Part shown: piece by piece, positions 10,623 to 61,800 of the stretch
How positions within the stretch are numbered: position 1 is the first letter of the stretch
Layout of the letters: each line of letters starts with the position of its first letter
From: Lama guanicoe
Lineage: Eukaryota
NCBI GenBank assembly: GCA_013239625.1
Contig: MU054338.1
Span: 496,001-560,000 of the forward strand
DNA: 64,000 nt
Reading direction: 5' to 3'
Translations under genes and position numbers: made by a program
The notes under the pieces: generated by a model
Databases searched by the model: none
What the model was told of the DNA's origin: nothing
Seen by the model: the letters and a program-made list of their open reading frames with translations, nothing else

Positions 10623-12515
10623 ATGGTCTTCTGGACGCAGCTGATGCTGCTGCTTTGGAAGAATTTACTGTATCGCAGGAGACAGCCGGTAAAGCCCCGT
10701 CGGGTGAACCAGGGCGGGGCGGCCAGGGCGCCCGCCACAGCCCCCCACTCCTCCCGCCTGTTCTGCCCCCGCAGATCCAGCTCTTGGTGGAGTTGATGTG
10801 GCCTCTCTTTCTCTTCTTCATCCTGGTGGCCGTACGCCATTCCCACCCCCCACTCGAGCAGCATGAATGTAAGCCCCCGCAGCGTCCAGCACTTTGGGAG
10901 GCAGGGAGCAATGGTCACCCTATCCACAGGGCCCCCAGTGAGCGTTAGGAGCACAGATCAGGCACTCAAATAATGGCTGAGAGTGAGCGCTCTGTCGCGG
11001 GGGGGCGTAATCACGATGGGGACTCGGACAGGAGCCCCAACATCCGGTGTCCCCACAGGCCACTTCCCCAACAAGCCGCTGCCTTCAGCGGGCACCATTC
11101 CTTGGCTCCAGGGCCTCATCTGCAACGTGAACAACACCTGCTTCCCGTGGCCCACGCCTGGAGAGGAGCCTGGAGTCGTCAGCAACTTCAAGGATTCCCT
11201 GTAAGTAAGATGCTGTGGGAGCGGCGGGGTGAGGGGGTGCCCATTGGCCACCGCCTCCCGCTCTCTCTCTCTGTCCCCAGGGTCTCCCGCTTCCTGGCAG
11301 ATGCCTATAGTGTCCTGGGGGGCCCCAGTGCCCAAAGGATGCTGGCCAGCCTGAGGAAGCTCATGCCCATGCTGAGGGCAGCTCACCAAGCTAGGGCAGG
11401 TGAGAAGGCAGGAGCCTGGGGGCAGGCAGGGCTGAGCACTGAGCCTCCGCCTGATTGTGAAACAGGCAGCAGGTTGGGGGTGGGTCTCAGATTAAGCTTC
11501 CCTAACCCTCTGCTTCTGTGCCTTACTCCCTCAGCCTGGCCTCAGCCGAGTGACCAGCCCAAGGAGGGACCACCCCTGGCCACTGAGCTGCTGAGGACAC
11601 TGCTGCTAGGGGTGAGGTGGGGTGGGACGCTGCTCTCATGGGGCCTCGGCGCTGCCCGTCCTGGACCAGGCACCTCCTTCTGGGACCTCTGATTCCAGCC
11701 TTCAGGCCTTGGCCTGGACTGTCCCTGGTGCCCAGTGTGATGTTCCTTGTCCGATCCGTGCCCAGACAAGCCACGTCTGGCATGCTGGTGAAGACTCCAG
11801 CTCTGAGACCTTGAACAGATCATGTGCTTCTTAGAGCCTCAGTTTCCCTGTTTGTAAAATGGGGTCTCTGAAAGTACTGACCCCGTGGAAACTTGGCTAA
11901 GCCTCTCCTTGTGAGATGTCACTGAATGTCGTTGACTCCTTGTCATCTTTCTCTCCAGGAATCCCTGGGGTCTGTGCTGGGCCAAGCCCCGGAGTCCATG
12001 GGCAGCTTTGTGGAGGCAGCAGAGGACCTGGCCCAGGAGGTAAGAGGCCTATGCATCCTCGACCCCAGCCAGGAAACTGGAACTGTGGCCGCCCGGACGG
12101 TGGGGTGACAGGGCAGCCCCATGCACCTACCCTCTGTAGGTTTGGGGAAACACAAGCAGAAAGAGAGGGAGAGGGTTCTTCCGGCAGAGTCCCTTGCCCT
12201 GGTGAAGGCGTGGTAGGGGAGCCACGTGGAAGCGAAGACAGCCAGGACCCTCTGGTGACCCACCTCCAGGTCCTGGAGCTGCCCAGCCTGGTGGAGCTGC
12301 AGGTGCTGCTGCAGAGACCCCAGAGGACCACTGGACCCCTGGAAGTGGTGTCAGAGGCCCTCTGCAGTGCCAGGGGGCCTAGCAAACCGGCGGGGCCCTC
12401 CCTCAACTGGTATGAGGCCAGTGACCTGAAGGAGCTCATGGGACAGGAGCCGGCAAGGGCCCTACCTGTTGACAGCCTGAGTGAGTGACCACCTTGGTTT
12501 CCCAGTCTGGGAAGT

Positions 12516-12558
<43 letters not shown>

Positions 12559-15500
12559 CAGGACCTCATGGTGTCCCGCCCCAGGCTCCACGTGCAATAA
12601 GCTGATGGGGGCCCTGGACACCCATCCCATGTCCCGCCTGCTCTGGAGGCGCCTGAAGCCACTGGTCCTGGGGAAAGTACTGTTTGCTCCTGATACGCCC
12701 TTCACCCGGCAGCTCATGGCCCAGGTGAGGGTGGGAGGGGCCCCTGATCTCTGCCTCAGCCCAGGGGAGAGAGCCCCCCCCTACCCTGGGCGGAGAGGGA
12801 TGGGCGTGGGCTAGGGCTCAGAGGCACGGGATGGAGCAGAGTGGAGGGAGCGGGAGAGGTGGGCAGGGGTCCTCAGAGGAGGGAAGTGTCAATGAACAGG
12901 CGAGGCCGGCATGGACCTCAGCGCCCACCTCCTACAGGTGAACCGAACCTTCCAGGAACTGGCTGTGTTGAAGGACGTCCAGGAGGTGTGGGAGCTGCTG
13001 GGACCCCAGCTCTTCAACTTCATGAATGACAGTGCGAATGTCGCCATGCTGCAGGTGGGGCTGGGATGGAGGGTGGCAGATTCACCCCCACCTCTTCATA
13101 CCCATCACCCCCTGCGGAGGACTTGGGCAAAGGGCAGGGCCTTATGGGCAAGAGTGTGGAGGTGGGATGTGGTGTCCATGGTGAGCTCAGGCCCCAGGGA
13201 TGGGAAGAGGTGCAATGGCCCTGAATGCCCAATGCAGACCCCCACGTTCCACGACACCCCCCAGAAGCTCCTGCAAATCCGGGACGAAAGAAGGAAGCAG
13301 CTAGGACCTGGAGGCCGGGACCAGGTGGAGGCCCTCCGTGCCTTTCTGAACCCACACAGAGGTGGCTACAGCTGGCAGGAGGCCCACGCTGACATGGGAC
13401 ATCTGGTGGGCATGCTGGGCTGCGTGATGGAGGTGAGGGGCCGTCTAGTAGGGGAAATCTCTAAGCGGAGAGGCAGCCCCTCTGTGGGGGTCCGATGGAG
13501 GGGTCGGCCCCACTCTGGGGCTCTGAGCAGGAAGCACGGCTTGGCCCCAAGGTCCAGGGGAGGACCCTGGGACTTCGGACCCACACCCAGGCCCCTCTGC
13601 AGTGCGTGACCCTGGACAAGCTGGAGGCTGTGCCCTCAGAGGCCGCCCTGGTGGAGCGGGCCCTGGAACTGCTCTCCCAGCACCGTTTCTGGGCCGGCAT
13701 TGTCTTCCTGGGGCCGGAGGACTCCCCGGACCGCACGCAGTTCCCAGGCCCTGGTCCCTTGCGCATCAAGATCCGTATGGACATCGATGACGTAACCAGA
13801 ACCAATAAGATAAGGGACAGGTGGGGGCCTTGTGGGGCAGGGCCAAGAGGACGGGGGCTCCATTGTCTAGAGATACCAGAGAGCTTCTCACCTATCAGAG
13901 GTTCCTTAGACCAACTGGGGTCCGTGGTGGGAGGGGCCTATGATGCGTGAGGGGGCGTGGCAGGCGGGGTCAACACTTTGGCTTCTGGGATAAGATGGGA
14001 GCCGCTAGCAGCTGGGGCTAGGTGCTTAATTGAGCGGGCATATAAGAGTGGAGCTAAAAGTGTGATGGGCAGGGCCCAGCCACTCCCTCCAGCCCACCAC
14101 CATGCTCCCCTCAGGTTTTGGGACCCTGGCCCCGCCGCTGACCCCCTGATAGACCTGCGCTATGTGTGGGGCGGCTTCGTGTACCTGCAGGACATGGTGG
14201 AGCGCGCCGCCGTGCACGTGCTCAGCGGCGCCCCGCCCCGCGCCGGCCTCTACCTGCAGCAGATGCCCTACCCTTGCTATGTGGATGATGCGTGAGCACC
14301 CCATCCTCACTCACTCACCCAGATGCCAGATTCCCGGGTCTCAGGGTGGGGCCTGTGTTCCCTTTGGAATGTCCATGCAGTCAATGCTGAGAACTACTGG
14401 TTTAGAGGGACCATTTCCTGTGACCTGTAATGGGAGGAGCAGGGATCCCTAAGGGTCTGGGGTCTCTGGACACAGCGAGAAGGTGGCTTGGCAGCTGGAG
14501 CACTGAGGGGCCATTAGGGGTCCGAGGATAAGGGAGGGCAAATGTTTGCTGGCTGCACCTTGGGACCCCGGGGCGGGAACCATTGTGCTTGATGGGGGCA
14601 GCACGGGGTCTTCGGCCTCCACCCCAGCTGCCCCACTGCCTCAGGTTCCTGCGAGTGCTGAGCCGCTCACTGCCGCTCTTCCTGACGCTGGCCTGGATCT
14701 ACTCGGTGGCGCTGACCGTGAAGGCTGTGGTGCGCGAGAAGGAGACGCGGCTGCGCCACACGATGCGCGCCATGGGGCTCAGTGGCGCTGTGCTGTGGCT
14801 GGGCTGGTTCCTCAGCTGCCTCGGGCCCTTCCTTCTCAGCACCGCGTTGCTCGTGGCCGTGCTCAAGGTGGGCGCACCCGGGCCTGCCTGGCTCCAGAAT
14901 GTGTGTGCTGCACGTGGGAGGGTAACAGGCAGGGGGGGCCTCCCGCTGTCGTGTGTCACTGGGCCAATCCCAGCACCCTCTCAAGCTCCCTCTGACTCCC
15001 GCAGCTTGGGGACATCCTCCCCTACAGCCACCCTGTTGTGCTCTTCCTGTTCTTGGCGGCTTTCGCCGTGGCCACGGTGGTCCAGAGTTTCTTGCTGAGC
15101 GCCTTCTTCTCCCGCGCCAACCTGGCGGCCGCCTGCGGGGGCCTCGCCTACTTCGTGCTCTACCTGCCCTACGTGCTGTGCGTGGCCTGGAGGGACCAGC
15201 TGCCGGTGGGCGGCCGCGTCGCCGCGGTAAGAGCCGATCCGGGTGGGTGCCGGGGTGCTGAACACCCTTAGTTGCCCTTGCTCGCTGACCCACCTACCTC
15301 CCTACCCCAACCCGCAGAGCCTTCTGTCACCTGTGGCCTTTGGCTTCGGCTGCGAGAGCCTCGCGCTGCTGGAGGAGCAGGGTGAGGGCGCGCAGTGGCA
15401 CAACATGGGCACTGCGCCTACGGACGACGTCTTCAGCCTGGCCCAGGTTTCGGGCCTTCTGCTGCTCGATGCCACTCTCTACGGCCTCGCCACTTGGTAC

Positions 15501-18500
15501 CTGGAGGCCGTGTGCCCAGGTGGGCTGTAGGAGGGACACCAGCACAAGGGAGGCTGGCTGAGGGGCGGGACCCTGGGTGGGGCGGGGCTGAAAGGCCTTT
15601 GGTACCTGGAGGCGGGTCTAGCTGAGTGGGTGGGGCTTCCTTGCCCCTCTGCACACGCACACTGGTGGCTGCGTGGAGGGACAGCCTGGGGCAGGCGGAT
15701 GGGACTTCCTGGTTACCTCCTACCTGGATGGCCTAATCCCAGGTGTGTGGCCAGAAGCTGGCACACTCCAGGAGGGTGGGCTCGAGGGGTAACTGAGCAC
15801 CATTTCCCACAGGCCAGTACGGGATTCCCGAACCATGGAACTTTCCCTTTCAGAGGAGCTACTGGATTGGCCCTCAGCCCCCTCAGGGTCCTGCCCCGCC
15901 CCCTGCCCCGCAAGACCCACAGGGTGAGGCCTGACAAACATTAGCAGCCACTTCCCTGGCCCCCCCAAAACCGTGGTTCCCACAGATCCCGATCCTCTGG
16001 ACACCCCCTAGTTCCCCAGGTCCCCTGGGGCTACCCGAACTCCTACAGACCCCAGCCCGAGAAGTCCCCGACTCCGCAGACCAGTTTTAAGGGTCCCCAG
16101 ACCCCCAAGAGCTCCCATGGCTGACTGTACCTTCCCTCTGCAGTGCTGGTGGAGGAGGCACCACATGGCCTGGTTCCCGGGGTCTCCATACGGGGCCTAG
16201 AAAAGCGCTTTCCTGGCAACCCGCAGCCAGCCCTGCGGGGGCTCAGCCTGGACTTCTACCAGGGCCACATCACCGCCTTCCTGGGCCACAACGGAGCAGG
16301 CAAGACCACTACTCTGTGAGCAGCCTGCACTCCCCTCCCTTCCCAGGGGTCATCTGGGGTCGGAAGTTTCCTTTCTGTACAGTGAGGGTGGGACCCCAGT
16401 TCACTTTGGACACACAATTGGCAGGCGACAAGTGCTTTCTTTGAGCCTCATTTTCCGTCTCCTGTAAAATGGGGATGTAACACCCCTTTGGTATGGGCAT
16501 ACAGTTGGCACCCTGTAAGTGCTGGTCTCTCCTCTCTGGGAGCCTCGGTTTTCCCCTCTGAAGGAGCAGCTGTTCTGAGACCTGTGCACCCCCAGGTCCA
16601 TCCTGAGCGGCCTTTTCCCACCCACTTCTGGCTCTGCCTGTGTCCTGGGCCATGACGTCCGGTCCGGCATGGCAGCCATCCGGCCCCACCTGGGCATTTG
16701 CCCACAGTACAACGTGCTGTTTGACATGTGCGTCACAGTGGGCCCCGGGGGCGGCAATGGGAGGGGCTGGGTGTTCTCTGGGGCCCTGCCAGCCATGGTG
16801 GCCACCCTGTTTTCCGCCCGTGGCCTCAGGCTGACTGTGGATGAGCATGTCTGGTTCTACGGGCGGTTGAAGGGTCTGAGCGCAGCTGCCGTGGGCCCTG
16901 AGCAGGACCGTCTGCTTCAGGACGTGGGGCTCATCCCCAAGCGGCACACACAGACGCGCCACCTCTCTGGTGAGCCCAGCCTGGTGGGGAGCCTCTGGGT
17001 CTGTGGAGGTGAGGCTGGGGGGAGGGGCTGGGACTTTATCCCCAGGGCGGTGGGAAGCCAGGAGACGGGTATCTGGGGGCCCAGGTGGGTAGGGAAAGGG
17101 GCAGGGAGGAGGGAGGCAGCCCTGCCCAAGGCTGGGGGGCAGGGTCATGCAAGACCCCACCCCTGTCCCAACCCAGGCGGGACACAGCGGAAGCTTTCAG
17201 TGGCCATTGCCTTTGTGGGTGGCTCCCAAGTCGTTATCCTGGACGAGCCCACGGCTGGTGTGGACCCTGCTTCCCGTCGCAGCATTTGGGAGCTGCTGCT
17301 CAAATACCGTGAAGGTAAGAGTTGGGGGTGGCCTGAGGTTCCCCTGGATTCTGCTTGAGGAGCCAGAAGATGTTTCTGATGAGAAGGTGCTGGAGATGGG
17401 GTTTTGAGGGGTGAGGAGGAGTTTACCACATGGGGCAGGCAATTCCTGGCAGAGGCCTTGCAGCCGGGGTGGTATGTGCGGATTGGGTCCCATGCCCAGG
17501 TCGCACACTGATCCTTTCCACCCACCACCTGGATGAGGCTGAGCTGTTGGGAGACCGTGTGGCAATAGTGGCAGCCGGCCGCCTGTGCTGCTGTGGCTCC
17601 CCACTCTTCTTGCGGCGTCACTTGGGCTCCGGATACTACCTGACGCTGGTGAAGGGTCCCCCACCTCTGGCCGCCAGCAAAAAGGTGAGGGCTGACCTCT
17701 GACCACTGACCCTCAAGGCTCTGTCCAGACCTGATGGCCATGGCAGTTGGTGCTCCTCTGTCCACAGGGTGACACTGACTTGAAGGATACCAGGAGGGAA
17801 GGGGAGCTGGGCAGCCATGACAGCACTGCCGGTGAGGGTAGGGGGTAGGGAGGAGCCAGAGGGAGCGGCTGGTGGTGGCGGTGACTTGGTTCAGGGCAAC
17901 AGGGTTTTGACCCCAGGCTGGACCCCTGACCCCTGACCATGGGCTGAGTCCACACACAAACCTACCCCTGCCCCTGGGTAGACTCTGGCTCTGAGTCCAG
18001 GTCAGGTCCTGCCCTCAGGTGCTTAATCCTGACCTTCTCTGCCTTTCGGGACAGGTTCCTCACGGGGCACCCAAGCCCCTTCCCCAGGGAGGCTAGGATG
18101 GGGGAGGGGCAGGAGCAGGGACTACTTCACTCCTCCGGGGCCCCTCACGTGCCCCACTGCCCACCCAGGTGTGCCCCAGCTGCTGGCCCTGGTGCAGCGC
18201 CTGGTGCCCGGGGCACGGCTGGTTGAGGAGCTGCCACACCAGCTGGTGCTGGCACTGCCCTACAAGGGCGCCCTGGACGGCAGCTTCGCCGAGCTCTTCC
18301 GTGAGCTGGACCTGCAGCTGGGGAAGCTGGGGCTGGCCAGCTATGGGATCTCCGACACCAGCCTCGAGGAGGTGCGGCTGCTGGGGGAGGTTTGGCAGCG
18401 TGGGAGGTGAGCTGCTTGGAGGGGGTGGCGCTTGGCAGGATGAGAAGGAGTCCGCTTGTTGACAGCTGGGCATCCACGGGAGGAGGCAGGGCACACGCAG

Positions 18501-21500
18501 GGGCCTGGAGGCCCAGAGTCCCTTGGGGAGGCCTGGGGACCCCCACCAATGAGGGCTGGGTGGCTCTTGAGTCCCCCTCTCTCCTGTGTGTCTCCAGGCT
18601 CTGAGCCCCCTGCTTTGTCTCCCCAGATCTTCCTGAAGGTGGTAGAGGACTGTGCTACAGACACAGGCCCAGAGAATGCAGCCACAGGTCCATGTCCCAG
18701 GCCCCTGACCCTGGTCCAGAGTTGGACCTGACTTTAGACCAAGTCCCCATCCCTGGCTGAGCGTAGCCCAAGGCATAGCCCCAACCTACATCCTTCACTC
18801 CTGACTCCTCCATCTGTGAGCCTTGATCTAAACCCAGACCCCAGGCTGAATGCTGACCCTGACCCCTTCTCCACAGATGGTCAGCACAGGCAGCTCCAGT
18901 GCTTGAGGAATTACCCGGAAGTGACCACGCGGCTCAAGATTCTGCCCGAGGGGTCCGCCCTGGAGAATGGGGAGCTGGGTGAGTTGTCCCCACCCAACCC
19001 TGTAGCCCTGTGGCCCCTCCTGATCCCCTCCTGATCAGGGCATGGGCATTGACCTCCCACCCCCCCCCACAGCTGGATCTGCCCCAGAGATGCAGGCCCT
19101 GCAGAGCTCAGGGCCAGATGCCACAGGCCGGGTCCAGGGCTGGGCACTGACCCTCCAACAGCTCCGGGCCTTGCTTCTCAAACGCTTCCTGCTGGCCCAC
19201 CGCAGCCGCCGGGGCCTGTTCGCACAGGTGAGTGGGGCCGGGCACCAGGGAGGCAGCGTGGGGGACCCTGGGGGCCTGTAATCCACTCTGTGACCTAATT
19301 CAGCCCCCTGATCCCAGGCATATCCCTCACTCTGAACACTTTTACTGAGAGCACTGGGGTGCCATGGATGGTTCTAGAGCGGGATCTGGGGAGGCTGGCT
19401 GCAGGCAAGCTTGGAGGGTAGACGGTGAGGACAGCTGATGGGCTGGTCCTTCAGATCGTGCTGCCTGCCCTCTTTGTGGGCCTTGCGCTGGCGTTCAGCC
19501 TCGTCGTGCCTCCTTTTGGATACTACCCGCCTCTGCAGCTCAGTCCCAGCATGTACGGTGCCCAGGTGTCCTTCTTCAGGTGGGCGCAGAGGAGAGAGGG
19601 CTGGTGGCGGGAGGGCCAGGGGCCTATGGGTGCAGCCCTGACCCAGCACCCCCACTCCATGCAGCGAGGATGCCCCAGGTGACCCTGAACGTGCCCATCT
19701 GCTTGAGGCACTGCTGGAGGAGGCCGGATTGGAGGCAAATAACTCCGCCAGGTGAGGGCCTGCCAAGCCTGAACCCTGCTCCTCTCTGGCCTCGGTTTCA
19801 CTATCTGGACTCTGGCCACTGGGCCCCCGTGGGTGCGGGTGCCGGGGGCACCCCCGTGCCTGCTTGGGAGCTGGGCGCGTCCACATTCGAGGAGCCCAGG
19901 AAGCCGGATACCCCAGCCCAGCCCCAACCCTCCCCGCCCCTGCCCCTGTAGGGCGCCCAAGTGCACCCCGCCCGCCGTCGGCCAGTTCTCGGTGCCCGAG
20001 GTTCCTGCGGATGTGGCTGAAGTCTTGGCCAGGGGCAACTGGACGCCAGAGTCTCCGTCCCCAGCCTGCCAGTGTAGCCGGCCTGGCGCCCGCCGCCTGC
20101 TGCCCGACTGTCCCTCAGGGGCCGGTGGTCCCCCGCCACCCCAGGCGCCAAGCAGCTCGGGCGAAGTGGTCCAGAACCTAACCGGCCGGAATCTGTCTGA
20201 CTTCCTGGTCAAGACCTACCCGGGCCTAGTGCGCCAGGGGTGAGCCGCCGCCCTGGACTCAGCGTGCCTGGCTATAACATGGGTCCTCGGGTGGAGGAGG
20301 TGGTCTGGTCTGGGGGGGGTCAGAGGTGGATGCCCGGCTTGGGGCTCTGGGCTGGGGCCTCCCGAGTACCCTCCACTCCTCACCCTTTTCATCTATCTCA
20401 CTGACTCCCCCACATCTCTGTCTCTTCATCTCAGTCACCTCTCTGTCTGTCTCTGCCAACAGCCTGAAAACTAAGAAGTGGGTGAATGAGGTCAGGTGAG
20501 GAGTGTCCCCGCCCGGGTTCCTTCCTGTGCCCTCTGCCTGCCCGCTGGGAGACTCTGCTGCCCCATCTGCCCAGGCCCTCAGCCGCCCCTCCTGCCTCCA
20601 CTGCTCCACAGGTATGGGGGCTTCTCCCTGGGGGGCCGAGACCCGGGCCTACCCTCAGGGCTTGAGGTGGGTCGCTCTGTGGAGGAGCTGCGGGCCCTGC
20701 TGAGTCCCCAACCTGGCGGGGCCCTCGACCGCATCCTGAACAACCTCACAGCATGGGCTCTCAGTCTGGACACCCAGGACAGCCTCAAGGTGGGAACGGA
20801 GCGGGTAGCAGGCAGATGCTGTTGGGGACAGGTCTGACCCCCACACTGACCCCTCCACTCTGACCCCACCCCAGATATGGTTCAACAACAAGGGCTGGCA
20901 CGCGATGGTGGCCTTTGTCAACCGAGCCAACAATGCTCTCCTACATGCCCGTCAGCCACCAGGCCCCACCCGTCAAGCCCACAGCATTATCACCATCAAC
21001 CATCCACTGAACCTCACCAAGGAGCAGCTGTCCGAGGCTGCGCTGTGAGTCCCTCTGCCCTGTGTGTCCCCCCGCCTCCGTTTTTCTGGTGTTTTGGGCA
21101 GTAGGAGTTGGATTTATGCTCTGCCACACTCCTGCTCTGTAAGTGGGGGTCAGGAACGGCCCCTCTGCACTCCCTAGGCCAGGGTAATGGGACAGCATGA
21201 GGCTCCAGTCTCCTCCAACAGCCTGCACATCCTTGTCACATCAACCTCTATCCGACGAGAGACCTGCACAACCTCTCCCTGGCCAACGACCTGAAATGGC
21301 TCAGGCCCCATCCCCCACCCATGCCCAGCCATGGGGACCTCTGTCCCATTTGTGGCATGCCCAGTTCCGCTCTGAGCTGCTCATTTACCCTCGCCCCCAG
21401 GATGGCCTCCTCAGTGGACGTGCTCGTCTCCATCTGCGTGGTCTTTGCTATGTCCTTCGTCCCAGCCAGCTTCACCCTTGTCCTCATCGACGAGCGTGTC

Positions 21501-24500
21501 ACCCGAGCCAAACACCTGCAGTGCATGGGTGGCCTGCCCCCAACCCTCTACTGGCTCAGCAACTTTGTCTGGGACATGGTGCGGTGTCTGCCTGGAGGGG
21601 TGGGGCCCCAGTCACCACTTGCCATTGCCCCTGCTGGGCAGATCATGTCTAGGATGGCCCAAGTGAAATCTTGGGGATTGTGGGAGACCTCATGTCCTGC
21701 TACCCAAAGCACAGGGAGGTCAGGGGGTGGGGGGGAGTACAGTGCTGAGGATGCCAGTTTCTGCCCCTGCACACTGAGGGGTGTAACTGCCATCTCCAAT
21801 GCAGTGTAACTACTTGGTGCCAGCGTGCATTGTGGTCCTCATTTTTCTGGCCTTCCAGCAGAGGGCGTATGTGGCCCCTGCCAACCTGCCTGCCCTCCTG
21901 CTCTTGCTACTACTGTATGGGTGAGGCCCCCAGCCCCTCAGGGCTTGTTCTTATTGATACCCCCTACCACCTAATACTGTTGAGGGAGATAGGACTCTGT
22001 AGCAACTCCTAAGGGGAGGATTTGGAGGTCTGAGTTGACCCCAAGTGTGATCTAGTTCAGCGGTGTGCTGAGGTGGCCTTAAAAGCTCATCTTGTTCTGG
22101 CCCGCATCACAGGAGTCTACAACACAGAATTTGGGAGGGGAGATCTGTATTCCTCTCAGGGCTGCTCAGCACCCTGTCTGGGCAGTAAGAGCAACTCCTG
22201 TTACCCTTCAGCTGGTCGATCACACCGCTCATGTACCCAGCCTCCTTCTTCTTCTCCGTGCCCAGCACGGCCTACGTGGTGCTCACCTGCATCAACCTCT
22301 TTATTGGCACCAATGGCAGCATGGCCACTTTTGTGCTTGAGCTCTTCTCTGATCAGGTAAGGGCACCACAAGCCTGGGCCTTGGGCTGGAGTTGGATGGG
22401 GGCATCAGCCTCAGCCCCTGACTTATCTCCTTCTTTCTGCCCTTGAGCAGAAATTGCAGGAGGTGAGCCAGATCCTGAAACGGGTCTTCCTTATCTTTCC
22501 CCACTTCTGCCTGGGCCGGGGGCTCATTGACATGGTGCGGAACCAGGCCATGGCTGACGCCTTTGAGCGCTTGGGTGAGAACTTCCCTCTAGCCATCAAT
22601 TCTACAGGCAAGGACAAATGACAGCCCCCAGGAAGAGAACTGAAGGTCTTAGGTGGCCCCAAGAACTGGTGGACCAAGTTAGAGGTGCAGCAAAGCAGCC
22701 GTAAAAGTCAATTCCATCTTGGTCACATCACGAGAGGTCTGAGGCCCTAAATAAGGGAGATGATAATGCCACTATTTTCTATGCCAATTAGACCCCAGTT
22801 GAGTGGCCTATTCAGTTATTGGTCCTTTCCCTTAAGAACCCAACGTTGAGGGGAGGGTACAGCTCAGTGGTAGAGTGCTTGCCTAGCATGCATGAGGTCC
22901 AGGGTTCAATTCCTAGTACCTCCACCAAATAAATAAACCTAATTATCTCCTCCACACACAAAAGCATTAAAAACAAACAAAAAGAACCCAAAATAACCCA
23001 AACAGAGAGGGACCCAGATCCCAAGACCCCCAAAATGACCCAATCCCTCCTTCCTATCCCCACAGGAGATGGGCAGTTCCAGTCACCCCTGCGCTGGGAG
23101 GTGGTTGGCAAGAACCTCTTGGCCATGGTGGTACAGGGGCCCATCTTCCTCCTCTTCACGCTCCTGCTGCAGCATCGCAACCGCCTCCTGCCACAGTCAG
23201 TCTGGACCAGGGAGGGTGGTGCGGGCTGGGGTCTGGCTCTGGGCTCACTCATGTCTCTCTGTTCTCAGACCCAGGCTGAAGCCTCTGCCTCCCCTGGGAG
23301 AGGAGGATGAAGATGTGGCCCGTGAGCGGGAACGGGTCATGCTGGGGGATACCCAGGGGGATGTGTTGGTGCTGAGGGACCTGACCAAGGTGGGTGCAGA
23401 GTGCGGGCTTGGGGGGCTCCCTCTGGCCCACTCCCCATTCTCATGGACCTGTGCCCTTCCCAGGTGTACCGTGGGCAGAGGACACTGGCTGTCAACCGCC
23501 TGTGCCTGGGGATCCCCCCTGGCGAGGTAGGTCCAGGGTGGAGGTTCTGGTCCAGGGCTGAGAGGCTGCCCTACTGTGCACCCCCCGCCCCTTACCGTGT
23601 TTGTGCTTATCTCCCTCTACTGAACACCTACTGTGCACCTGCTGCTCTTTATTGAGCACTTACTGGCTGTCGACACTTGAGCTTCAATTTTGAGCCAACA
23701 AATTCTCATTAAGCACCTACTGCATGCTTACATTTATTGACCCCTACTGTGTGCTATCAGGTATTAGAACAAGCCTACTGAGGACAAATTAATGGTTGAG
23801 CACTTGTTGGGCTCCCACATACATGCCGTTTATATTAATCAAGCACCTACTGTGTATCAGCGTTTACTGACTATGAACTGTGTACATTAAAGCATTGTTG
23901 AGCCCCCTTGTGTGCACCCAAAGTGTACTGAATGTCACCTTTGTGATGGTCAACTTTTTATCAAGCACCAACAGTATTTACTGAGCTCCTACTGTGTATG
24001 TCTGAGCACTGCTGACAGCCAGTATCTAGCCGGCACCTGCTTTGTATTGATTCACATTCCGGCAGTTACTCTGTGCAGACTTACCTGCTGTGGGCCATTT
24101 ACTGGCCCCTTCTGGGGGCTGGCACGCACCCACGGACACGTGTGGCGTGCTAGTGTCAGCTGTAGTCACTGTGTCGAGTGCCTACTGTGTGTAGCCAACC
24201 TCTCCACCTCAGGCTGACTTGCGCCCAGCCTGAATTCTCTCTGGGCACCATTGCCATCAGGCACCCCACGCGTGGCCGGAGACATTCAGAAAGCTCCTGC
24301 GTGCCCGGATGGATTCAGCACGTGCCGTGTGCCAGCCACATTCCTGCCGAGTGGCAGCTTTACGTCTGCCTGCACACCCAGTGTCTGCCCCAGGGGTCCC
24401 TGTGGAACTGAGAAAGCTGCCCCAGAAATCAGAGGCGCTGGGGCAAGGGCCTGAGGCCTCACTGAGCGCCACCTGTGGGTGTGCCTGCAGTGTTTTGGAC

Positions 24501-27347
24501 TGCTGGGTGTGAATGGAGCGGGGAAGACGTCCACCTTCCGCTTGGTGACGGGGGACACGCTGCCCAGCGGGGGTGAGGCCACGCTGGCGGGCCACAGGTG
24601 AGCAGCCCCAGCCCAGAGCCCTCGTTCCTCCCCACCACCCTTTCCCGCGCATGGCCACTACCTCCCCAGCATGGTCCTCTCGGGCTGGCCTGAGTGCCTG
24701 ACCCCCACACCCTTGCCCATGGACTCGGCCCTCAGACACCCCGTCCTTTACCAGGGTGGCTGGGCCCTGAGACCCTTGTTTGCCCCTGCATGGCCGAGGC
24801 CTAGCCAGTTCCCTGAGCTACCTGTGCCCCCCCCCCCGTCCCCAGCGTGACCCAGGAACCAGCTGCAGCTAACCGCCGCATGGGCTACTGCCCTCAGTCT
24901 GATGCCATCTTCGAGCTGCTGACAGGCCGTGAGCACCTGGAGCTGTTTGCACGCCTGCGCGGGGTCCCCGAGGCCCAGGTTGCCCAGGTGACCACCCCCC
25001 AACAAGCCCTCCAGCCCCCACCCAACCATCTCTCCCCTGCCTCCGCCCGGATCACAGCTTATCCGCCTTCTCCTTGACCACACCCAGAGCCCAGGTCCAC
25101 CCACACCTGGTCCTCTGCCCCTGCCCTTCCCCCAGCTCTCCCCCTGCTCCTTCCCCAGCTCCTACACAGTCATTTCGGTTCACCTCCCCTTCCCACAGTC
25201 TTGCAGGCTGCATCTGCCCCCTCTCTGCTTAGGGACCCGCCCCTTTCCTCCTTGACCCTCCAGGCTCCAGCCCGCCCACTCTCACGGGACTCCCGTCCAG
25301 CTTGCGCTTCCTGGCGGTGGTGCCTTCTGTCCCTGGGCCAAGTCCTGCCTCTCCCGTACTCCGGCCCCACGCCCACGTGGCATTCCCGCTCTGTCCTCAC
25401 TCCGTATGCGCTCTGGCCCCACCCCCTTTATTTACCTTCCACACCCCCATCCTCTCCCTGGCCCCTTCCGCTCACTCTGGACCCCTGTGCTCACTCCGCC
25501 CTCACTCTGTGCCCACTTGCTCTCACTACCTTCCTGCCCAGCCCTCGCTGTGGCCCCCACCAGGCTCATCGTGGCCTCCCCCAGGCACACTCTGGCCCGT
25601 CTCACCCTGGCCCCCAACTCTCACTCTGGCCCACCGCAGACAGCAAGCTTGGGCCTGGAGCGCCTGGGGCTCCTTCAGTATGCGGACCGGCCCGCGGGCA
25701 CCTATAGCAGTGGCAACAAGCGGAAGCTGGCGACAGCCCTGGCTCTGGTGGGGGACCCGGCTGTGGTCTTTCTGGTGCGTGTGGGCGGGGCCTAGGCAGA
25801 GGAGGGGGCGGGGCCGGTGGGGCGGGGCTTAAACATCTCTCCCCTCCCAGGATGAGCCGACCACAGGCATGGACCCCAGTGCCCGGCGCTTCCTCTGGAA
25901 CAGCCTCCTGGCTGTGGTGCAGGAGGGCCGCTCCGTGGTGCTCACCTCGCACAGGTGGGCCCCAGACTGGATGCCCAGGGCTGCGGGTCCAGGTGCCCCG
26001 GCCTGGGAAGAAAGGTGGACCAGGCCCCAGCGAGAGGGTGTCAGAGCACGGGGTCACAAGGGATGGGGTGGTCCTGCCCTTGGGGGAGGGTGCCCGGCCT
26101 GATTCGGAGGACACAAGGGGTTGGTACCCGGCCCCGGAAACACAGCTGTCTGGGCCCGACAGGAACTCCCCGCGAGCACAGGGTGGTCTAGAGGTGGCGG
26201 GTGAGGATCCCGGCAGGGGCAGCACAGCACCGGGCGTGGCTGGTCCAGGCCAGGCTGGAGCTCACGGCGCTGGGCTCCTGCAGCATGGAGGAGTGTGAGG
26301 CCCTCTGCACGCGCCTCGCCGTCATGGTGAACGGGAGGTTCCGCTGCCTGGGCAGCACGCAGCACCTCAAGGGCAGGTGAGCGGGGGCAGCCCTCCAGGA
26401 CCGGGCTTGGGGCAGGTAAGCGTGGGGCTTGTAGGAGGAGCCGGAGGAGAGACCACGCGGGGCCATCTTGGCTCTGTGGGGAAGAGGCAAAAATTACGGG
26501 CTGTCCGGGAGAGATGACTGAGAGGGCGAGACTGGACCAAGATGGGGATGAGGTCTGATGGGTGAGGGTGCAAGAGGCCAGGGCAGAGGCTAAAGAGGGT
26601 CTGGCGGGTGGGCGTGGCCTGGCGAGTGGGCGGGGCGCGGCCTTATGTGGGCGGGGCCTAGGGGAAACCAAAGTTAGACAAGAAACGAGCATGCGGGTGG
26701 GGCAAGGACAAGCAGGGGTTGGGGTCACGTGTGTTGGATAGGGGTCTAGAGGAGCTGGGGATAGGGATGGGGCCAGAGGAAAGCAGGAGGGTGCTGTGGG
26801 CTGGTTGTAGGGAAGAGTGGGCTGTGGGCGGGCCTTGTAGCTCTGGCCCCGCCTCCCCCCCCCCCCCCCAGGGGCTGGCCACACGCTGACCCTGCGGGTG
26901 CCCTTGTCGCGGTCTGAGTCAGCGGCAGCCTTCGTGGCAGCGGCGTTCCCGGAGGCCGAGCTGCGGGAGGCACACGGCGGCCGCCTGCGCTTCCAGCTGC
27001 CGCCGGGAGGGCGCTGCGCCCTGGCGCGCGTCTTTGGAGAGCTGGCGGCTCACGGGGCGGAGCATGGCGTGGAGGACTTCTCTGTAAGCCAGACCACGCT
27101 AGAGGAGGTGACTGCAGCGCCAGGACTGGGCTGGGGGTAAGGGTGGGGCTGGGGGCCCTCAAGCTGACTTCCCCTCCTGTTTTCTTGGGCCACCCACCAC
27201 TAGGTATTCCTGTACTTCTCCAAGGATCAGGGGAAGGAGGAGGAGGAGGAACAGGAGGCAGAAGAGGACCCTGTGCCAGGCTGGCAGCGCCCCAAGCTCA
27301 TCACCCGGTCCCTCGATGACCCCAGCATGGCCGTGACGGTGCTCTGA
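10623..27347 (+). CDS. ABCA7: ATP-binding cassette transporter A7, 46 coding exons; about 2147 aa if 5 nt are restored, frameshifted at 26872 as assembled
   Basis: Exons 10623-10688, 10775-10868, 11059-11200, 11281-11399, 11535-11611, 11959-12039, 12270-12480, 12585-12724, 12938-13054, 13265-13432, 13603-13820, 14115-14291, 14645-14867, 15005-15226, 15318-15519, 15813-15923, 16144-16315, 16596-16727, 16830-16969, 17177-17314, 17500-17684, 17768-17831, 18169-18371, 18627-18687, 18877-18978, 19073-19227, 19455-19579, 19665-19751, 19952-20239, 20463-20495, 20612-20789, 20875-21044, 21401-21578, 21805-21920, 22212-22356, 22451-22574, 23066-23195, 23269-23389, 23464-23526, 24491-24597, 24846-24987, 25640-25774, 25851-25954, 26284-26376, 26872-27107, 27204-27347. 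Starts [14 protein letters not shown]; Walker A GHNGAGKT and GVNGAGKT; Walker B VILDEPT and VFLDEPT; C-terminal VFLYFSKDQ...TVL*. Confidence 0.96.
12515..12558. repeat. Compound microsatellite (TG)13(AG)9 in a 104-nt ABCA7 intron
   Basis: Read directly. Confidence 0.97.
22848..22983 (+). mobile_element. tRNA-derived SINE (vic-1-like) in an ABCA7 intron
   Basis: GAGGGGAGGGTACAGCTCAGTGGTAGAGTG...GGTTCAATTCC...AAATAAATAAACCTAATTA plus an A-rich tail; target-site duplication AAGAACCCAA at 22834-22843 and 22982-22991. Confidence 0.87.
23565..24200. repeat. Degenerate tandem array of an L2-tail-like unit (about TTTATTGAGCACCTACTGTGTGC)
   Basis: More than 12 diverged copies about 25-40 nt apart, e.g. 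TTTATTGAGCACTTACTG, ATTAAGCACCTACTGCATG, TTTATTGACCCCTACTGTGTG, TCAAGCACCTACTGTGT, TTTACTGAGCTCCTACTGTGT, GAGTGCCTACTGTGTG. Confidence 0.75.
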
Positions 27348-32000: not shown

Positions 32001-35000
32001 CCCGCGCGCTCACAGTCGAGCCATGTGTATCTGCGGGACGGTGCACCTGGCTCTGGACCAGGGCCCCGTCTGCTGCCAGACGGGGCCCCGAGGTGAGGGG
32101 ACTGTGCGGGGTGCAGGGGTCTGGCTGCGAGCACGTGGAGCTTGGGGCATTTACCACCAGTCCATGGGGGGACACAGGGCTGCCAGGCACTTGCCTTGGC
32201 TGTGCCAAGCTGGGCATATCTGAGCTTAGCCAGAATCCCACCTGCCGTTGGCTTCGCAGGTTGGGATGCTGCGCGACCGGAGTGGCTGAGGCCCAGGCAA
32301 GAGGGGTGGGTGCGTGGAAGGAGTGTCCTGGGAAGGGGCGTGTCCTGGCCTTTTCTCTCCTGGCTTCCCTGGTTTCCTGAGGCTCCTTCCCGCCTCCTTG
32401 AGTTGGCCTTGGATTCAGGCAGCAAATTGCACCCAGGTCTGAGGCACCGGGCTGTATCTGGAGCAGGCATTCCGTGGAGGGGGTCTCCCTGTGGGTGGCA
32501 TTCAGCCAGGGGCCTCAGTGCTGCAAAGGGATCAGGCACCTCTTTTTGGGTTCCACTCTTTTGGTTTTGGTTTGGTTTTGAGCATCACCTACCAGGCACA
32601 GAGTTAGGGTCCACAGGTGTGAAAGTTATCCTCCCAACTGATGGCCAGGCTCCTCCTGGGTCTCAGAGTCTGGTCATTCCTTCCCTATCCACGCATTCCT
32701 GTGGCTTGGTTTCCACTAGATGGTGCGTGTTTTGCACACACTGTTCTGCTTGCGCACACTGCTTTTTTCCAATTAAGAACATTTGAGGAGGGCATTTAAA
32801 GCCACTTTCCAAGATGCAGATATGACCTCAACCCTCCTTCACTCTAACACCTTCTGTGGCTCCCCATTGCCCTTGAAATAAAGTCAGGCAGGATCTATCT
32901 GGCTGGCATTCTCATGCCTTCAGAGCTAGTGTAGATTTGAAAGCTGTGTGATCCTTGAGAACTGACTTCTCCACTCTGTGCCTCTTTCCTCATCTGCCAA
33001 ATGGGGGTGATGACAGTGTCTGCCCCATGGGGTGGCTGTCTGGGGAGAGTAAGATAACGAGGTGTTTAAGCCCCAGTGTCCAGGCATGCAGGGCTGGGAG
33101 AGAGCTGGACAGAGCCTTGAGGGTTTGGGGCAGGGAAGGGGCCAGGTGGGCTGCATGGAGGAGGAAGGACCAGGACTACAAATTTGAAGGCAAGCAGGAG
33201 TTTGTTTTCTGGAGGGACGAGGAAAGAATGTTCTGTGCAGGACTACGTACGCCAACGTCTATGCCTTGGTTGAGCTGGCCAGCAGTTCAGAGAGGCACAT
33301 TGCTCCCACTGAGGTCACAGGCCGAGCCTCAGACAGCTGCCCTCCCATCTCTGCCTGTCTCCCCACTTGGGGACAGGGGCTCTGAGGAGGAGGTGGGCCC
33401 CTCTCTCCCTGCTCACACCCACTCTGCCCAGCAGACCTCCTGGAGGCCCGCCGGCCACTGGCCCATGAGTGCCTGGGTGAGGCACTTCGTGTGATGTACC
33501 AGGTCATGTCCAAGTACCCGCTGCTGAACACAGTGGAGACGCTTACAGCTGCTGGCACCCTTATTGCCAAGACCAAAGGTCAGTTGGCTAGGATGGGGCA
33601 GAAATGGCTTTCTGCCTGGGAGGGCTCCCTGAAGGAGGGGATGTTTGAAGTGGGTTTTGAAGGACGCATAGGAGTCTGACAGGCCCAACAGCTCCAATGT
33701 TACCCCTTCAGTTAGTTGCACAGGTGGTTACCTCCCAGACTAGGCCAAACCCTCTTTTCCTCGTCTCTGCACTTCAGCCTTCCATTATGAGTGCAACAAC
33801 GAGTCTGACAAGCGGGAGTTTGAGAAGGCCTTAGAGACCATTGCCGTGTCCTTCAGTAGCACGTGAGCATGGGGCCAGCGACGCCGGGGTGGGGAATCGT
33901 GGGGACCTGTGTGCCTCTTGACATCTGCACCCCCCTGCCCTGCAGTGTGTCTGAGTTCCTCATGGGTGAAGTGGACAGTAGCGTCCTCCTGTCAGTGCCC
34001 CTTGGGGACCTGGGCCAGGTGAGTTGGGGTGGCCTGGAGGCTGCATGGGGTCAGGCTGGCAGGGTGGGTGAGTCACCCCAGCTCCCTCTGTGGACTGTGG
34101 CCCCCTGCTCTGTCCAGGGTTGTGGTGACTGTCTCCTGCAGGGTGGGCGTCAAACGGGCCCCGGCCCTGGCTGGACTCACCTGTTCTCCCCCTGTGCAGT
34201 CCGTGGAGAATCTGTATGGACAGGGGAGCGAGGGCGCCCCACCCAGCACCGACGACTGCGATGCGGGTGAGTCTCGGAACCACAGAGCGGGTGGCACACG
34301 CTCAAGTGGTGGGCCGAGCGGCGGAGGACTCGGGCAGAGGCTGGGAGGAAAGGTGGGCTGAGGGGCAGCCCGGGCTGAGCAGACCCCCCACAGGCTGCCT
34401 GCCCCCGGAGGAGGTGGACGTGCTGCTGCAGCGCTGTGAGGGCGGCGTGGACGCAGCGCTGCAGTATGCCAAGAACATGGCCAAGTACATGAAGGACCTC
34501 ACTGGCTACCTGGAGAAGCGTATGGCACTGGGTGCGAGCCAGACAGGGTTGGGGTGGGGGTCTGGCTGGGGGGCCCCGCCCCGCCCCCCCCCCGCACTCA
34601 CACCTCTCCCTGCCTGCAGAGATGGACTTTGCCAAAGGCCTGCAGAAGATCGTGCACCACTGTAGGCAGAATGTCATGCAGGAGGTGGGGGCCCCTGGGT
34701 ACCGGGCAGGGTCCCTCAGGCTGGGTGTGAGTCTAGGCCCCTCCAAGAAGGGCTGAAGGAAAGGGACTTCCTGTCTACACTACAGTAGCTGAGATGGCAG
34801 GGCTTCCACGAGGGCGTGGGGTGCTGGGGCCCCCTCCCGTCCCACCCCTGTGACCGCCACCCTCTGCCCCCGCCGCAGCCCCACATGCCCCTCCTGTCCA
34901 TCTACTCGCTGGCGCTGGAGCAGGACCTGGAGCTTGGCCACGGCATGGTGCAGGCAGCGGGCACGCTGCAGACCCAGACCTTCATGCAGGTGGGCTGCAC

Positions 35001-58826: not shown

Positions 58827-61800
58827 CTAGGAGTTTGGGAATGGGGGGCTGAACTGGATGACGCTCTGCCGCTCAGGGCCCCCACCGCCTCCAGGAGCGC
58901 CCGGGGCCCCGGCACCAGCCCCCAGCGGGCCAGGGGGTTCGGCGGGTGGCACAGCGTTGAGGGAGCGCAGCATGTCCTCCAGCACCTCCTTGAAGTTGAT
59001 GTCACAGCCCTGGTGCAGGAGGGCTGCAGGGTCAGTCGGGGCCTCAGGGGCGTCCGGAGCGCCCAGCAGCAGGCCACCGGGGCCGGGGACTGGCGGCGGC
59101 GGTGGGAAGGTGAACGGCGAGGGCAGAGGGAAGGCCTGGGCGGGTGGGCTGTAGGTGAGGTCTAGGACCTCGCTGGGGCCGCAGGGCATTGCAAGCGGGC
59201 GCAGGGCGGCCGGTGGAGGGGGAAGCCCACGGCTGCGCGCCTGCTTGCGCTTCACGTCGGCGTCCATGAGCTGCAGCTCCTGCAGCACCCGGTGCACGCA
59301 GCCCTCGGGGATCTTGATGCCTGCAGGGCGCCAGGAGGTCAGGGCCTGCGGGGGGCCGACCTCCCCCACCCCGCCCGCGCCCACCGCTCACCAACTTGCT
59401 TCTTCTTGTCCTTGGTCTTGAGACGTACGATCTGCAGGTAGCTGCTGCTGGTGACGTCGGCCATGACGGCGGCGATGCGGCCCCACACGCGCAGCAGGGC
59501 CCCGCACAGCATGTAGTGGTGGCGCAGCCGCAGGCCCTGCGCGCAGTCCTTACCCTGCTGCGCCAGCCGGCAGTGCCGGTTCCTGCACAGGACAGGCTCG
59601 CTGCTGTGCCTGCCTTCCCAGCCCCGCCCACCCTGCTCCCACCCCTTGCCCCTCATCCGCAAGCCTCCAGGACCGCCCTGGCTCCTTCCACAGCAGCGCA
59701 CAGCCTCCCCCTCTCCAGTCCAGCCTGGGCCTCACCACGTGGTGTGGCTGCAGTGCGTCAGCGAGAAGGTGTAGCTGCTCTCCCAGTGCTCCCTGGCCTC
59801 CTCCGCTGTCACCTGTGGAGACAGGCAGTTGGGCCCCTGGACGGGTGTCCCCGGGCTCCACAGTGCCCCAGGCCTGCTCATCTTGCACCTGGTAGCCAGG
59901 GCAGCGGAGCATGGAAGCCGAAGGCGGCCTGGGGACAGCAGGAGGCCCGCCAGGGAGGAGCCACGGGGGAGGCTGGAACTACAGGGCCTAGGTGGGGGCA
60001 CGGCTGGGCCTACCCGGTGGAACTTCCGGCACAGGCTGTCGAACGTCTCCAGCTGGCTCTGCCGCCCGATGTTGGGCTTATACACGGTGAAGAGCTTGCC
60101 GCGGTTCTGCTGGGCCAGCAGGCAGCTGGGCTTGTTGTCACGGACCTGGGCAGGGGTGGGCGTCAGGGCGGGGGCACTACCCCACGTGCTGAGTGTTGGT
60201 CCCCAAGGTATGCGTGCCCAAGAGGGCCTGAGGCTGACTGCTGCCCTCGCCCCGCAGCCCACCAGCTGCTGGGGTCCTGCCCTTGGGGTACTGGGGGCTT
60301 GCTGGGGGTGCCCACCTTGTAGGAGAGGTAGAAGCCGTCGTGGGTGCCTGTCAGCTCCAGAGACCTGGCATACGCCTCCTCCCACTTCAGGCCGCGGTCC
60401 ACGCTGATCTGCAGGGCCCGTGGGCATTAGGGGGATGTGGGGGGCGGGGACGATGGGTGGGACGAGGNNNNNNNNNNNNNNNGGTGAGGGGCGGGACGGT
60501 GGGCGGGGATGTGTGGGGCGGGGATGATGGGTGGGGACATGGGGGGCGGGGACGACGGGCGGGACGAAGGGCCGGGGTGGTGTCTGATCACCTTGTAGAA
60601 GACCACCTGCCCGTCCTGTGGGTGCCCGGGGGCCAGGAACACCTGCTGGCTCTCCTCGTAGATCTCGTCGATGCCGGGAGCCAGGTCTGGAAGAGAGCGA
60701 GCAGGATGAGTGGGGCCCAGGCTCCCGCCTTGGGGAGGGGGGTCTAGCAGGGCGGGCCTGGCCTGGCCGCCGGTGCTCACCCAGGATGCCCATGTCATAT
60801 TTGCCCTCCTTCTTGTCCACCGCGATGAGGTGGTCGAAGGTGTCGGAGAAGTACTGGAACAGCGCGTTCTGCTTGTGCACTTCCAGCCCCAGGATACGGT
60901 TCAGGAACTTGGTGATGGAGCAGTCTGGTGGCGGGACGGAGCCTCAGGCTGCGGCTGAGCCCAGCCTCTCCCTGTCCACTGGACACGGAAGTTTGGGGGC
61001 GCCGCCCGCCCCAGGCTCTACTGGGGGCTCACCCTTCTCCACATCCAGGCAGCCGGACCTGGACTCGCGCCCTCCGATGCCAACCGACAGCAGCCCCTGC
61101 TTCATGTCTGCGGGGAGGGAGGGGGCCTCACACCTGCTTCCCTCCCGGCCCTCACCCCAGCCCACCAGGGATCCCCCTCACCACCAGTGTCCCCTTGGCA
61201 TGTGTGGGGAGGACCTTTTGACACCAATCCCAGTGGCCCAGATGGCACCCCTTGGGGAGACTGCAGGCACCCCAACTCACCGCGGAAGAAGGCGGCGTCC
61301 CCTCCCGGGTAGCCCTGGGGCAGCGGCACCTTGCTCTCGGTCTGGCTAAGGATGGTGGTGAGGACGCAGCTGAGGGCCCGGGCGCCGTACTGCGTGGAGG
61401 GGCGAGGGTCGTGTCAGAGGCTGGGCTGGGCACCCCGGGACCCTCCTCTCTCGGGCCCTACCTCCTTGGGTACCTTGTTCTCAAAGTTGTACTTGCTCAA
61501 GTCCCGGGACTCGGTGGCTCGGCGGTCTCCGTGGGTCAATGCCCCCTGCCCAGGATGGGAGAGGCTGTCACAGGTGGCCCACACTCCTCCCTGATCTGCC
61601 CTCCTCAGGGAGCCTCCCCCAGCCCCTGGCCCGCACACTCACCAGGCTCTCCAGCCGCTTGGCCACAATGGAGGCAAACCTGCGCTCCCCAGCTAGCTCT
61701 GAGATGAGGAAGATGTACTCGGGTGCAGAGACCTGGTTGGACCGGTGGGTCCTGCCTGGAGGCAGAGGAGACTTTTAGAGACCTTGGCAGGCCTGCAGGG

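Follow-up and report, generated by a model that had tools for sequence, protein, structure and literature searches.

A frameshift in the assembled ABCA7 gene of the guanaco is most likely a consensus error behind a long C run

Truncating alleles of ABCA7 raise the risk of Alzheimer's disease in people, as the preliminary description of the locus studied here had also stated, and one such allele reaches a frequency of 5.85% in African American cohorts, as reported in a review (PMC11095487). The same review describes ABCA7 knockout mice that were studied as adults and showed lipid changes, and its domain order assigns human residues 2015-2146 to the second regulatory domain (PMC11095487). Because human truncating alleles and knockout mice exist, an ABCA7 null allele would be viable and is not implausible (PMC11095487).

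Apparent gene loss can also arise from sequencing. In Illumina reads, the base after a homopolymer tends to be called as the base of the run, on most instruments and more severely for long and for G/C runs (PMC8002175). Indel errors per base were reported to rise 1,000-fold between runs of 2 and runs of 15 (PMC3334598), and a study cited in PMC13330187 found a five-fold increase in error rates behind runs of at least 12. Older assemblies are described as containing many false gene losses, with fewer frameshift errors in Illumina-based assemblies than in others (PMC9516821).

Here, we analyse a 64,000-nt stretch of a Lama guanicoe assembly (the window), in which the second-last coding exon of ABCA7 is out of frame. 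The frameshift is confirmed as present in the assembly itself. As we discuss below, the reported lesion is most likely not a real feature of the gene.

One lesion in an otherwise intact gene

We built an exon model against dromedary ABCA7 (XP_031293893.2), and the resulting 46 exons were colinear with this protein and spanned it end to end. All 45 introns had GT-AG boundaries, and exons 1-44 encoded 2019 residues free of stop codons, of which 1983 were identical to the dromedary protein and 36 were different (98% identity, with two in-frame gaps). Exon 45 matched the solved structure of ABCA7 with an E-value of 6e-39, followed by ABCA3 (3e-10) and ABCA1 (4e-9), and camel orthologues were the closest proteins. 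The gene is an ordinary ABCA7 orthologue, as had been proposed from the letters alone. The conserved neighbours expected beside an ABCA7 orthologue are CNN2 and ARHGAP45. Two small in-frame shortenings relative to dromedary (~2 residues at 17768-17831 and 1 residue at 18877-18978) fall in the linker that follows the first nucleotide-binding half. Mismatched model junctions near residues 1051 and 1158, which we considered as extra lesions, turned out to be in-frame length differences from dromedary instead. A second copy or haplotig of the stretch was discarded as well, a 421-nt query having a single match in the assembly (2.05 Gb, 55,231 contigs).

Among the 46 coding exons we found one lesion, at the start of exon 45. 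The assembled acceptor AG (26870-26871) directly follows a run of 15 C's, and the exon that it defines has a length of 2 mod 3 behind an upstream exon ending in phase 2, so that the frame is lost as assembled. Recomputation gave the same phase, acceptor and length as the preliminary description, and also its premature stop: the spliced frame runs for 2034 aa to the TGA, compared with 2147 aa if the gene were intact. According to the NMD rule, a stop codon triggers decay if it precedes the last junction by more than about 50-55 nt; the TGA lies 190 nt upstream of the last exon junction in the assembled gene, a position that qualifies an ABCA7 truncating allele for NMD. A real lesion would therefore predict NMD or the loss of the last 127 residues of ABCA7, including the second regulatory domain. 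The VFLYF tail, whose loss had been predicted, is encoded by an intact exon downstream of the stop.

Table 1. Features of the ABCA7 locus, in positions of the 64,000-nt window.
Feature	Position	Strand	Remarks
ABCA7 coding span	10623..27347	+	46 coding exons, ATG to TGA; 2147 aa if intact
Coding exon 44	26284..26376	+	ends in phase 2; GT donor 26377-26378
GC dinucleotide, candidate donor	26373..26374	+	nearest frame-restoring GC; in-frame protein 3 residues shorter (in silico)
C15 run	26855..26869	+	final five C's at positions where relative's contig carries acceptor AG and first exon letters
Lesion	26865..26870	+	CCCCCA in window, AGATTC in relative; gap-free register
Expected acceptor	26865..26866	+	from relative's contig, register check
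Expected start of exon 45	26867	+	from relative's contig, register check
Coding exon 45, as assembled	26872..27107	+	236 nt; 241 nt from expected start; human ABCA7 residues 2018-2095
Premature TGA	26915..26917	+	met in shifted frame
Last coding exon (VFLYF... tail)	27204..27347	+	intact; 45/47 identical to dromedary

The C15 tract is the longest single-base run within the 64 kb, where runs of at least 9 number 10, and local GC content around the lesion is 73%. Shorter C runs of 9-11 at 19060-19068, 24827-24837 and 34584-34593 are also acceptor tracts that end a few letters before the AG; the exons behind the first two, both in ABCA7, splice in frame, and the third belongs to the gene next to ABCA7, which we take to be ARHGAP45. 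The window has a single gap (15 N, 60468-60482), which sits within a G-rich tandem array, a further sign of assembly trouble in G/C-rich simple sequence. We rejected a tandem repeat as the cause of the lesion: the sole repeat, an 18-nt unit in 2.2 copies, lies away from it at 26597-26636.

We searched for a splicing route around the break. Between 26420 and 27100, 61 of 62 AG dinucleotides failed as alternative acceptors and the remaining one (27087), although in frame, would leave a 19-nt exon and drop nearly all of exon 45, which extends the earlier statement that nearby AGs give no rescue. Skipping of exon 45 keeps the frame broken, and none of the GT donors between 26330 and 26840 restores it. 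The preliminary description had left donors untried; with GC allowed as a donor, five such dinucleotides of the upstream exon bring the reading frame back in silico. The strong-looking GTAAGC at 27084-27089, inside exon 45, fits two camel RefSeq isoforms that are 8 residues shorter at this place and is consistent with an in-frame alternative donor that does not rescue the frameshift.

The junction in sequencing runs and in the proteins of relatives

Evidence on the letters around the C run came from a run labelled as RNA whose contigs were ~96% identical to the window and which probably derives from an Old World camel. Two of its contigs covered the region; both contain intron and leave the exon body uncovered, and neither holds a spliced exon 44-45 joint. 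One of them (151 nt, depth 3.4) aligned without a gap over 26739-26864 and then continued with eight loose letters, AGATTCGG, the last two of which (GG) coincide with window positions 26871-26872. Read in this register, the acceptor and exon start move to the expected positions in Table 1, the exon begins with A, and its length becomes 1 mod 3. The register taken from the left, in the intron, agrees with that from the right, where camel proteins require F-G-A codons. Compared with this relative, the window therefore has zero net length change and differs in six letters, of which five read C in the window. This contig is one low-depth record from another species that reaches only eight letters past the run, short of our 31-letter bridging rule, and four further mismatches, not itemized, may fall in the C tract.

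These letters revise two points of the preliminary description, which had taken about 5 nt to be missing and had guessed G as the first letter of the exon: the contig shows a six-letter replacement of equal length and gives A. The reading of the junction as RFGAGH stood up well, all 17 camel ABCA7 records (dromedary, Bactrian and wild camel, many isoforms from few assemblies) having KGRFGAGH with no X. The frameshift is thus absent from three Camelus species. The preliminary description had also held that an exon of 3n+1 nucleotides in other assemblies would mark the lesion as an artefact; relatives do have such an exon, from the contig's implied 241 nt and from camel proteins that read in frame, an outcome limited to relatives. 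More widely, the junction motif was present in 182 of 214 fetched proteins, and in every one of the 182 L[KQ] and GH are separated by five residues, with RF at the junction in 181 and KF in 1; the 32 proteins outside the pattern are intron read-through fragments, other isoforms and distant ABCA proteins. The best 120 matches listed and the 15 of 26 camel-cluster members listed, all Camelus, included no ABCA7 protein from a South American camelid (alpaca, llama, vicuna or guanaco).

Own-species DNA runs were examined over 26300-26970. One yielded no contigs, and two yielded 41 and 2 C-rich pieces of 31-35 letters with about 3 mismatches, which end short of bridging the lesion; because contig recovery was incomplete, the absence of a bridging piece is uninformative. 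In 14 DNA runs (four organism labels, seven studies), each run held 0.93-0.94 of 122 sampled words and none held more. About 4-5 sampled words are expected to touch the lesion, and 7-8 were missing in the runs; the missing words weakly fit letters peculiar to the assembly, and contig breaks at the C run could have the same effect. An exact 35-letter exon pattern had 0 matches in metagenome contigs.

Among more distant relatives, ABCA7 is whole in hippo and camel, and four of five cetacean models (two gray whale, common dolphin, pilot whale and humpback) are short, at 983-1768 aa, with neither the second Walker B motif nor the VFLYF tail; the remaining one carries a low-quality label. Judging by these protein models, ABCA7 may be decaying in cetaceans. 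Among the papers listed on ABCA7 in cetaceans, none dealt with such decay by title, and ABCA7 is absent from the text supplements of PMC6760925, whose tables could differ.

Constraint and the competing explanations

A rough neutral rate of 4.1% (21/516 letters, mostly intron) was taken from the window and the two relative contigs, with the relative assumed to be as distant as dromedary. Set against that rough expectation, amino-acid differences from dromedary are few upstream of the break (36 in 2019 residues, compared with about 179 if neutral, a ratio of 0.2), downstream of it (2 in 125, compared with 11) and within the broken exon itself (0 in 78, compared with 7), where 78/78 residues are identical to dromedary XP_031293899.2. 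Change thus stands at ~0.2 of the rough neutral value on either side of the break, which does not indicate relaxed selection, and a unitary pseudogene would show multiple inactivating changes, whereas here one lesion occurs in 46 exons. Because amino-acid changes fall far under the neutral expectation, an old loss of ABCA7 is ruled out; a recent allele is compatible with the conservation.

A loss of ABCA7 across the whole South American camelid lineage is, in our view, extremely improbable. Such a loss would suit the lack of a South American camelid protein among the matches and cluster members listed, and the degenerate look of several cetacean models suggests that the gene can decay in relatives. 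With 15 of 26 camel-cluster members listed, however, the missing protein means little, and the gene carries no second lesion. Moreover, the 36 changes in 2019 residues compare with about 90 expected if this branch alone had been neutral (P about 1e-10, rough), and a fixed allele should have put the words of the site into runs under the four organism labels, although this last point is weak. Rescue of a real lesion through the GC donor, 4 nt before the GT one, with an in-frame protein of 3 residues fewer, is very improbable too. The frame is restored in silico, and rescue would account for the conservation downstream of the break, but the GT donor is only 4 nt away, the shorter spacing occurs in 0 of the 182 motif proteins, and R/K-F is kept in all 182. 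This explanation also presupposes a real lesion, and no junction read for it was seen.

Under a recent null allele in the sequenced animal, five exon letters would have been deleted next to a C run that had lengthened independently, and the outcome would be NMD or a 2034-aa protein without the second regulatory domain and tail. The letters of the assembly and a stop 190 nt ahead of the last junction speak for it, and human truncating alleles that segregate, together with knockout mice studied as adults, indicate that loss is tolerated (PMC11095487). Long homopolymers also mutate genuinely, which counts against an error. Compared with the relative's contig, however, the allele requires a +5 expansion of C's that exactly offsets the deletion; none of the listed runs contains all sampled words of the stretch; and the lesion lies where the window is most prone to error. 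We consider such an allele in this animal improbable. Taken broadly, a natural loss-of-function allele that segregates in a South American camelid, arising by slippage of the acceptor C run over the exon start and possibly part-rescued by the GC donor, is unlikely.

Very probably, then, the frameshift is a consensus error that arose through over-calling of the C run past the true splice acceptor, and ABCA7 in the animal is likely ordinary and full-length. The odds move to error because there is a single lesion, purifying selection acts on both sides of it, three Camelus species are intact, and the C overrun preserves length against the relative. An error also fits better than a 5-nt deletion because no net length is lost against the relative and five of the six changed letters are C. 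The lesion stands directly behind the long C run, five of its six letters take the base of the run, and length is kept relative to one contig (depth 3.4, another species). The preliminary description had put a null allele and a consensus error about even, with error at least as likely; its preference survives but its near-even balance does not, and the evidence now weighs, by rough estimate, heavily for error over a real allele. The assembly is probably a short-read one, judging from its 55,231 contigs. Reads anchored on the left, whose C run was lengthened or bled, could have been merged with exon reads anchored on the right within a space of fixed length; the true run would then count about 10 C's if letters were purely substituted, or 15 C's if the merge dropped five exon letters.

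If the lesion is an error, its value is as a caution: screens for gene loss run on this assembly will score ABCA7 as lost, and any lesion next to a long C/G run in it needs read support. If it is a true allele, it would offer a natural model of ABCA7 deficiency in a large mammal, a long-lived carrier of a mutation of the Alzheimer-risk type, and would test the dispensability of the second regulatory domain.

Comparison with known alleles, orthologues and errors

The human premature-termination alleles resemble the assembled sequence in that the stop precedes the last junction and either NMD or a missing second regulatory domain is predicted (PMC11095487). By contrast, the human alleles, as reviewed there, are supported by reads, mostly heterozygous and tied to disease, whereas the window is one consensus sequence known from the assembly alone. 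Among the matches listed on ABCA7 in camelids and on mammalian gene loss, where subscription papers fell mostly outside the scope, no title or abstract opening named a camelid ABCA7 allele.

The orthologues of Camelus (XP_031293893.2 and XP_031293899.2 from dromedary, XP_032322038.1 from wild camel and XP_045360000.2 from Bactrian) share the 46-exon reading of the window, at 98% identity over 2019 residues. They read KGRFGAGH in frame; the window has no usable acceptor in that phase. With published homopolymer errors (PMC8002175, PMC3334598, PMC13330187, PMC9516821), the lesion shares a long C run, GC-rich DNA, letters that take the base of the run, and a length that is kept. The errors described in those reports occur per read and mostly affect one base, whereas the guanaco sequence would represent a six-letter overrun in a consensus, together with a displaced AG.
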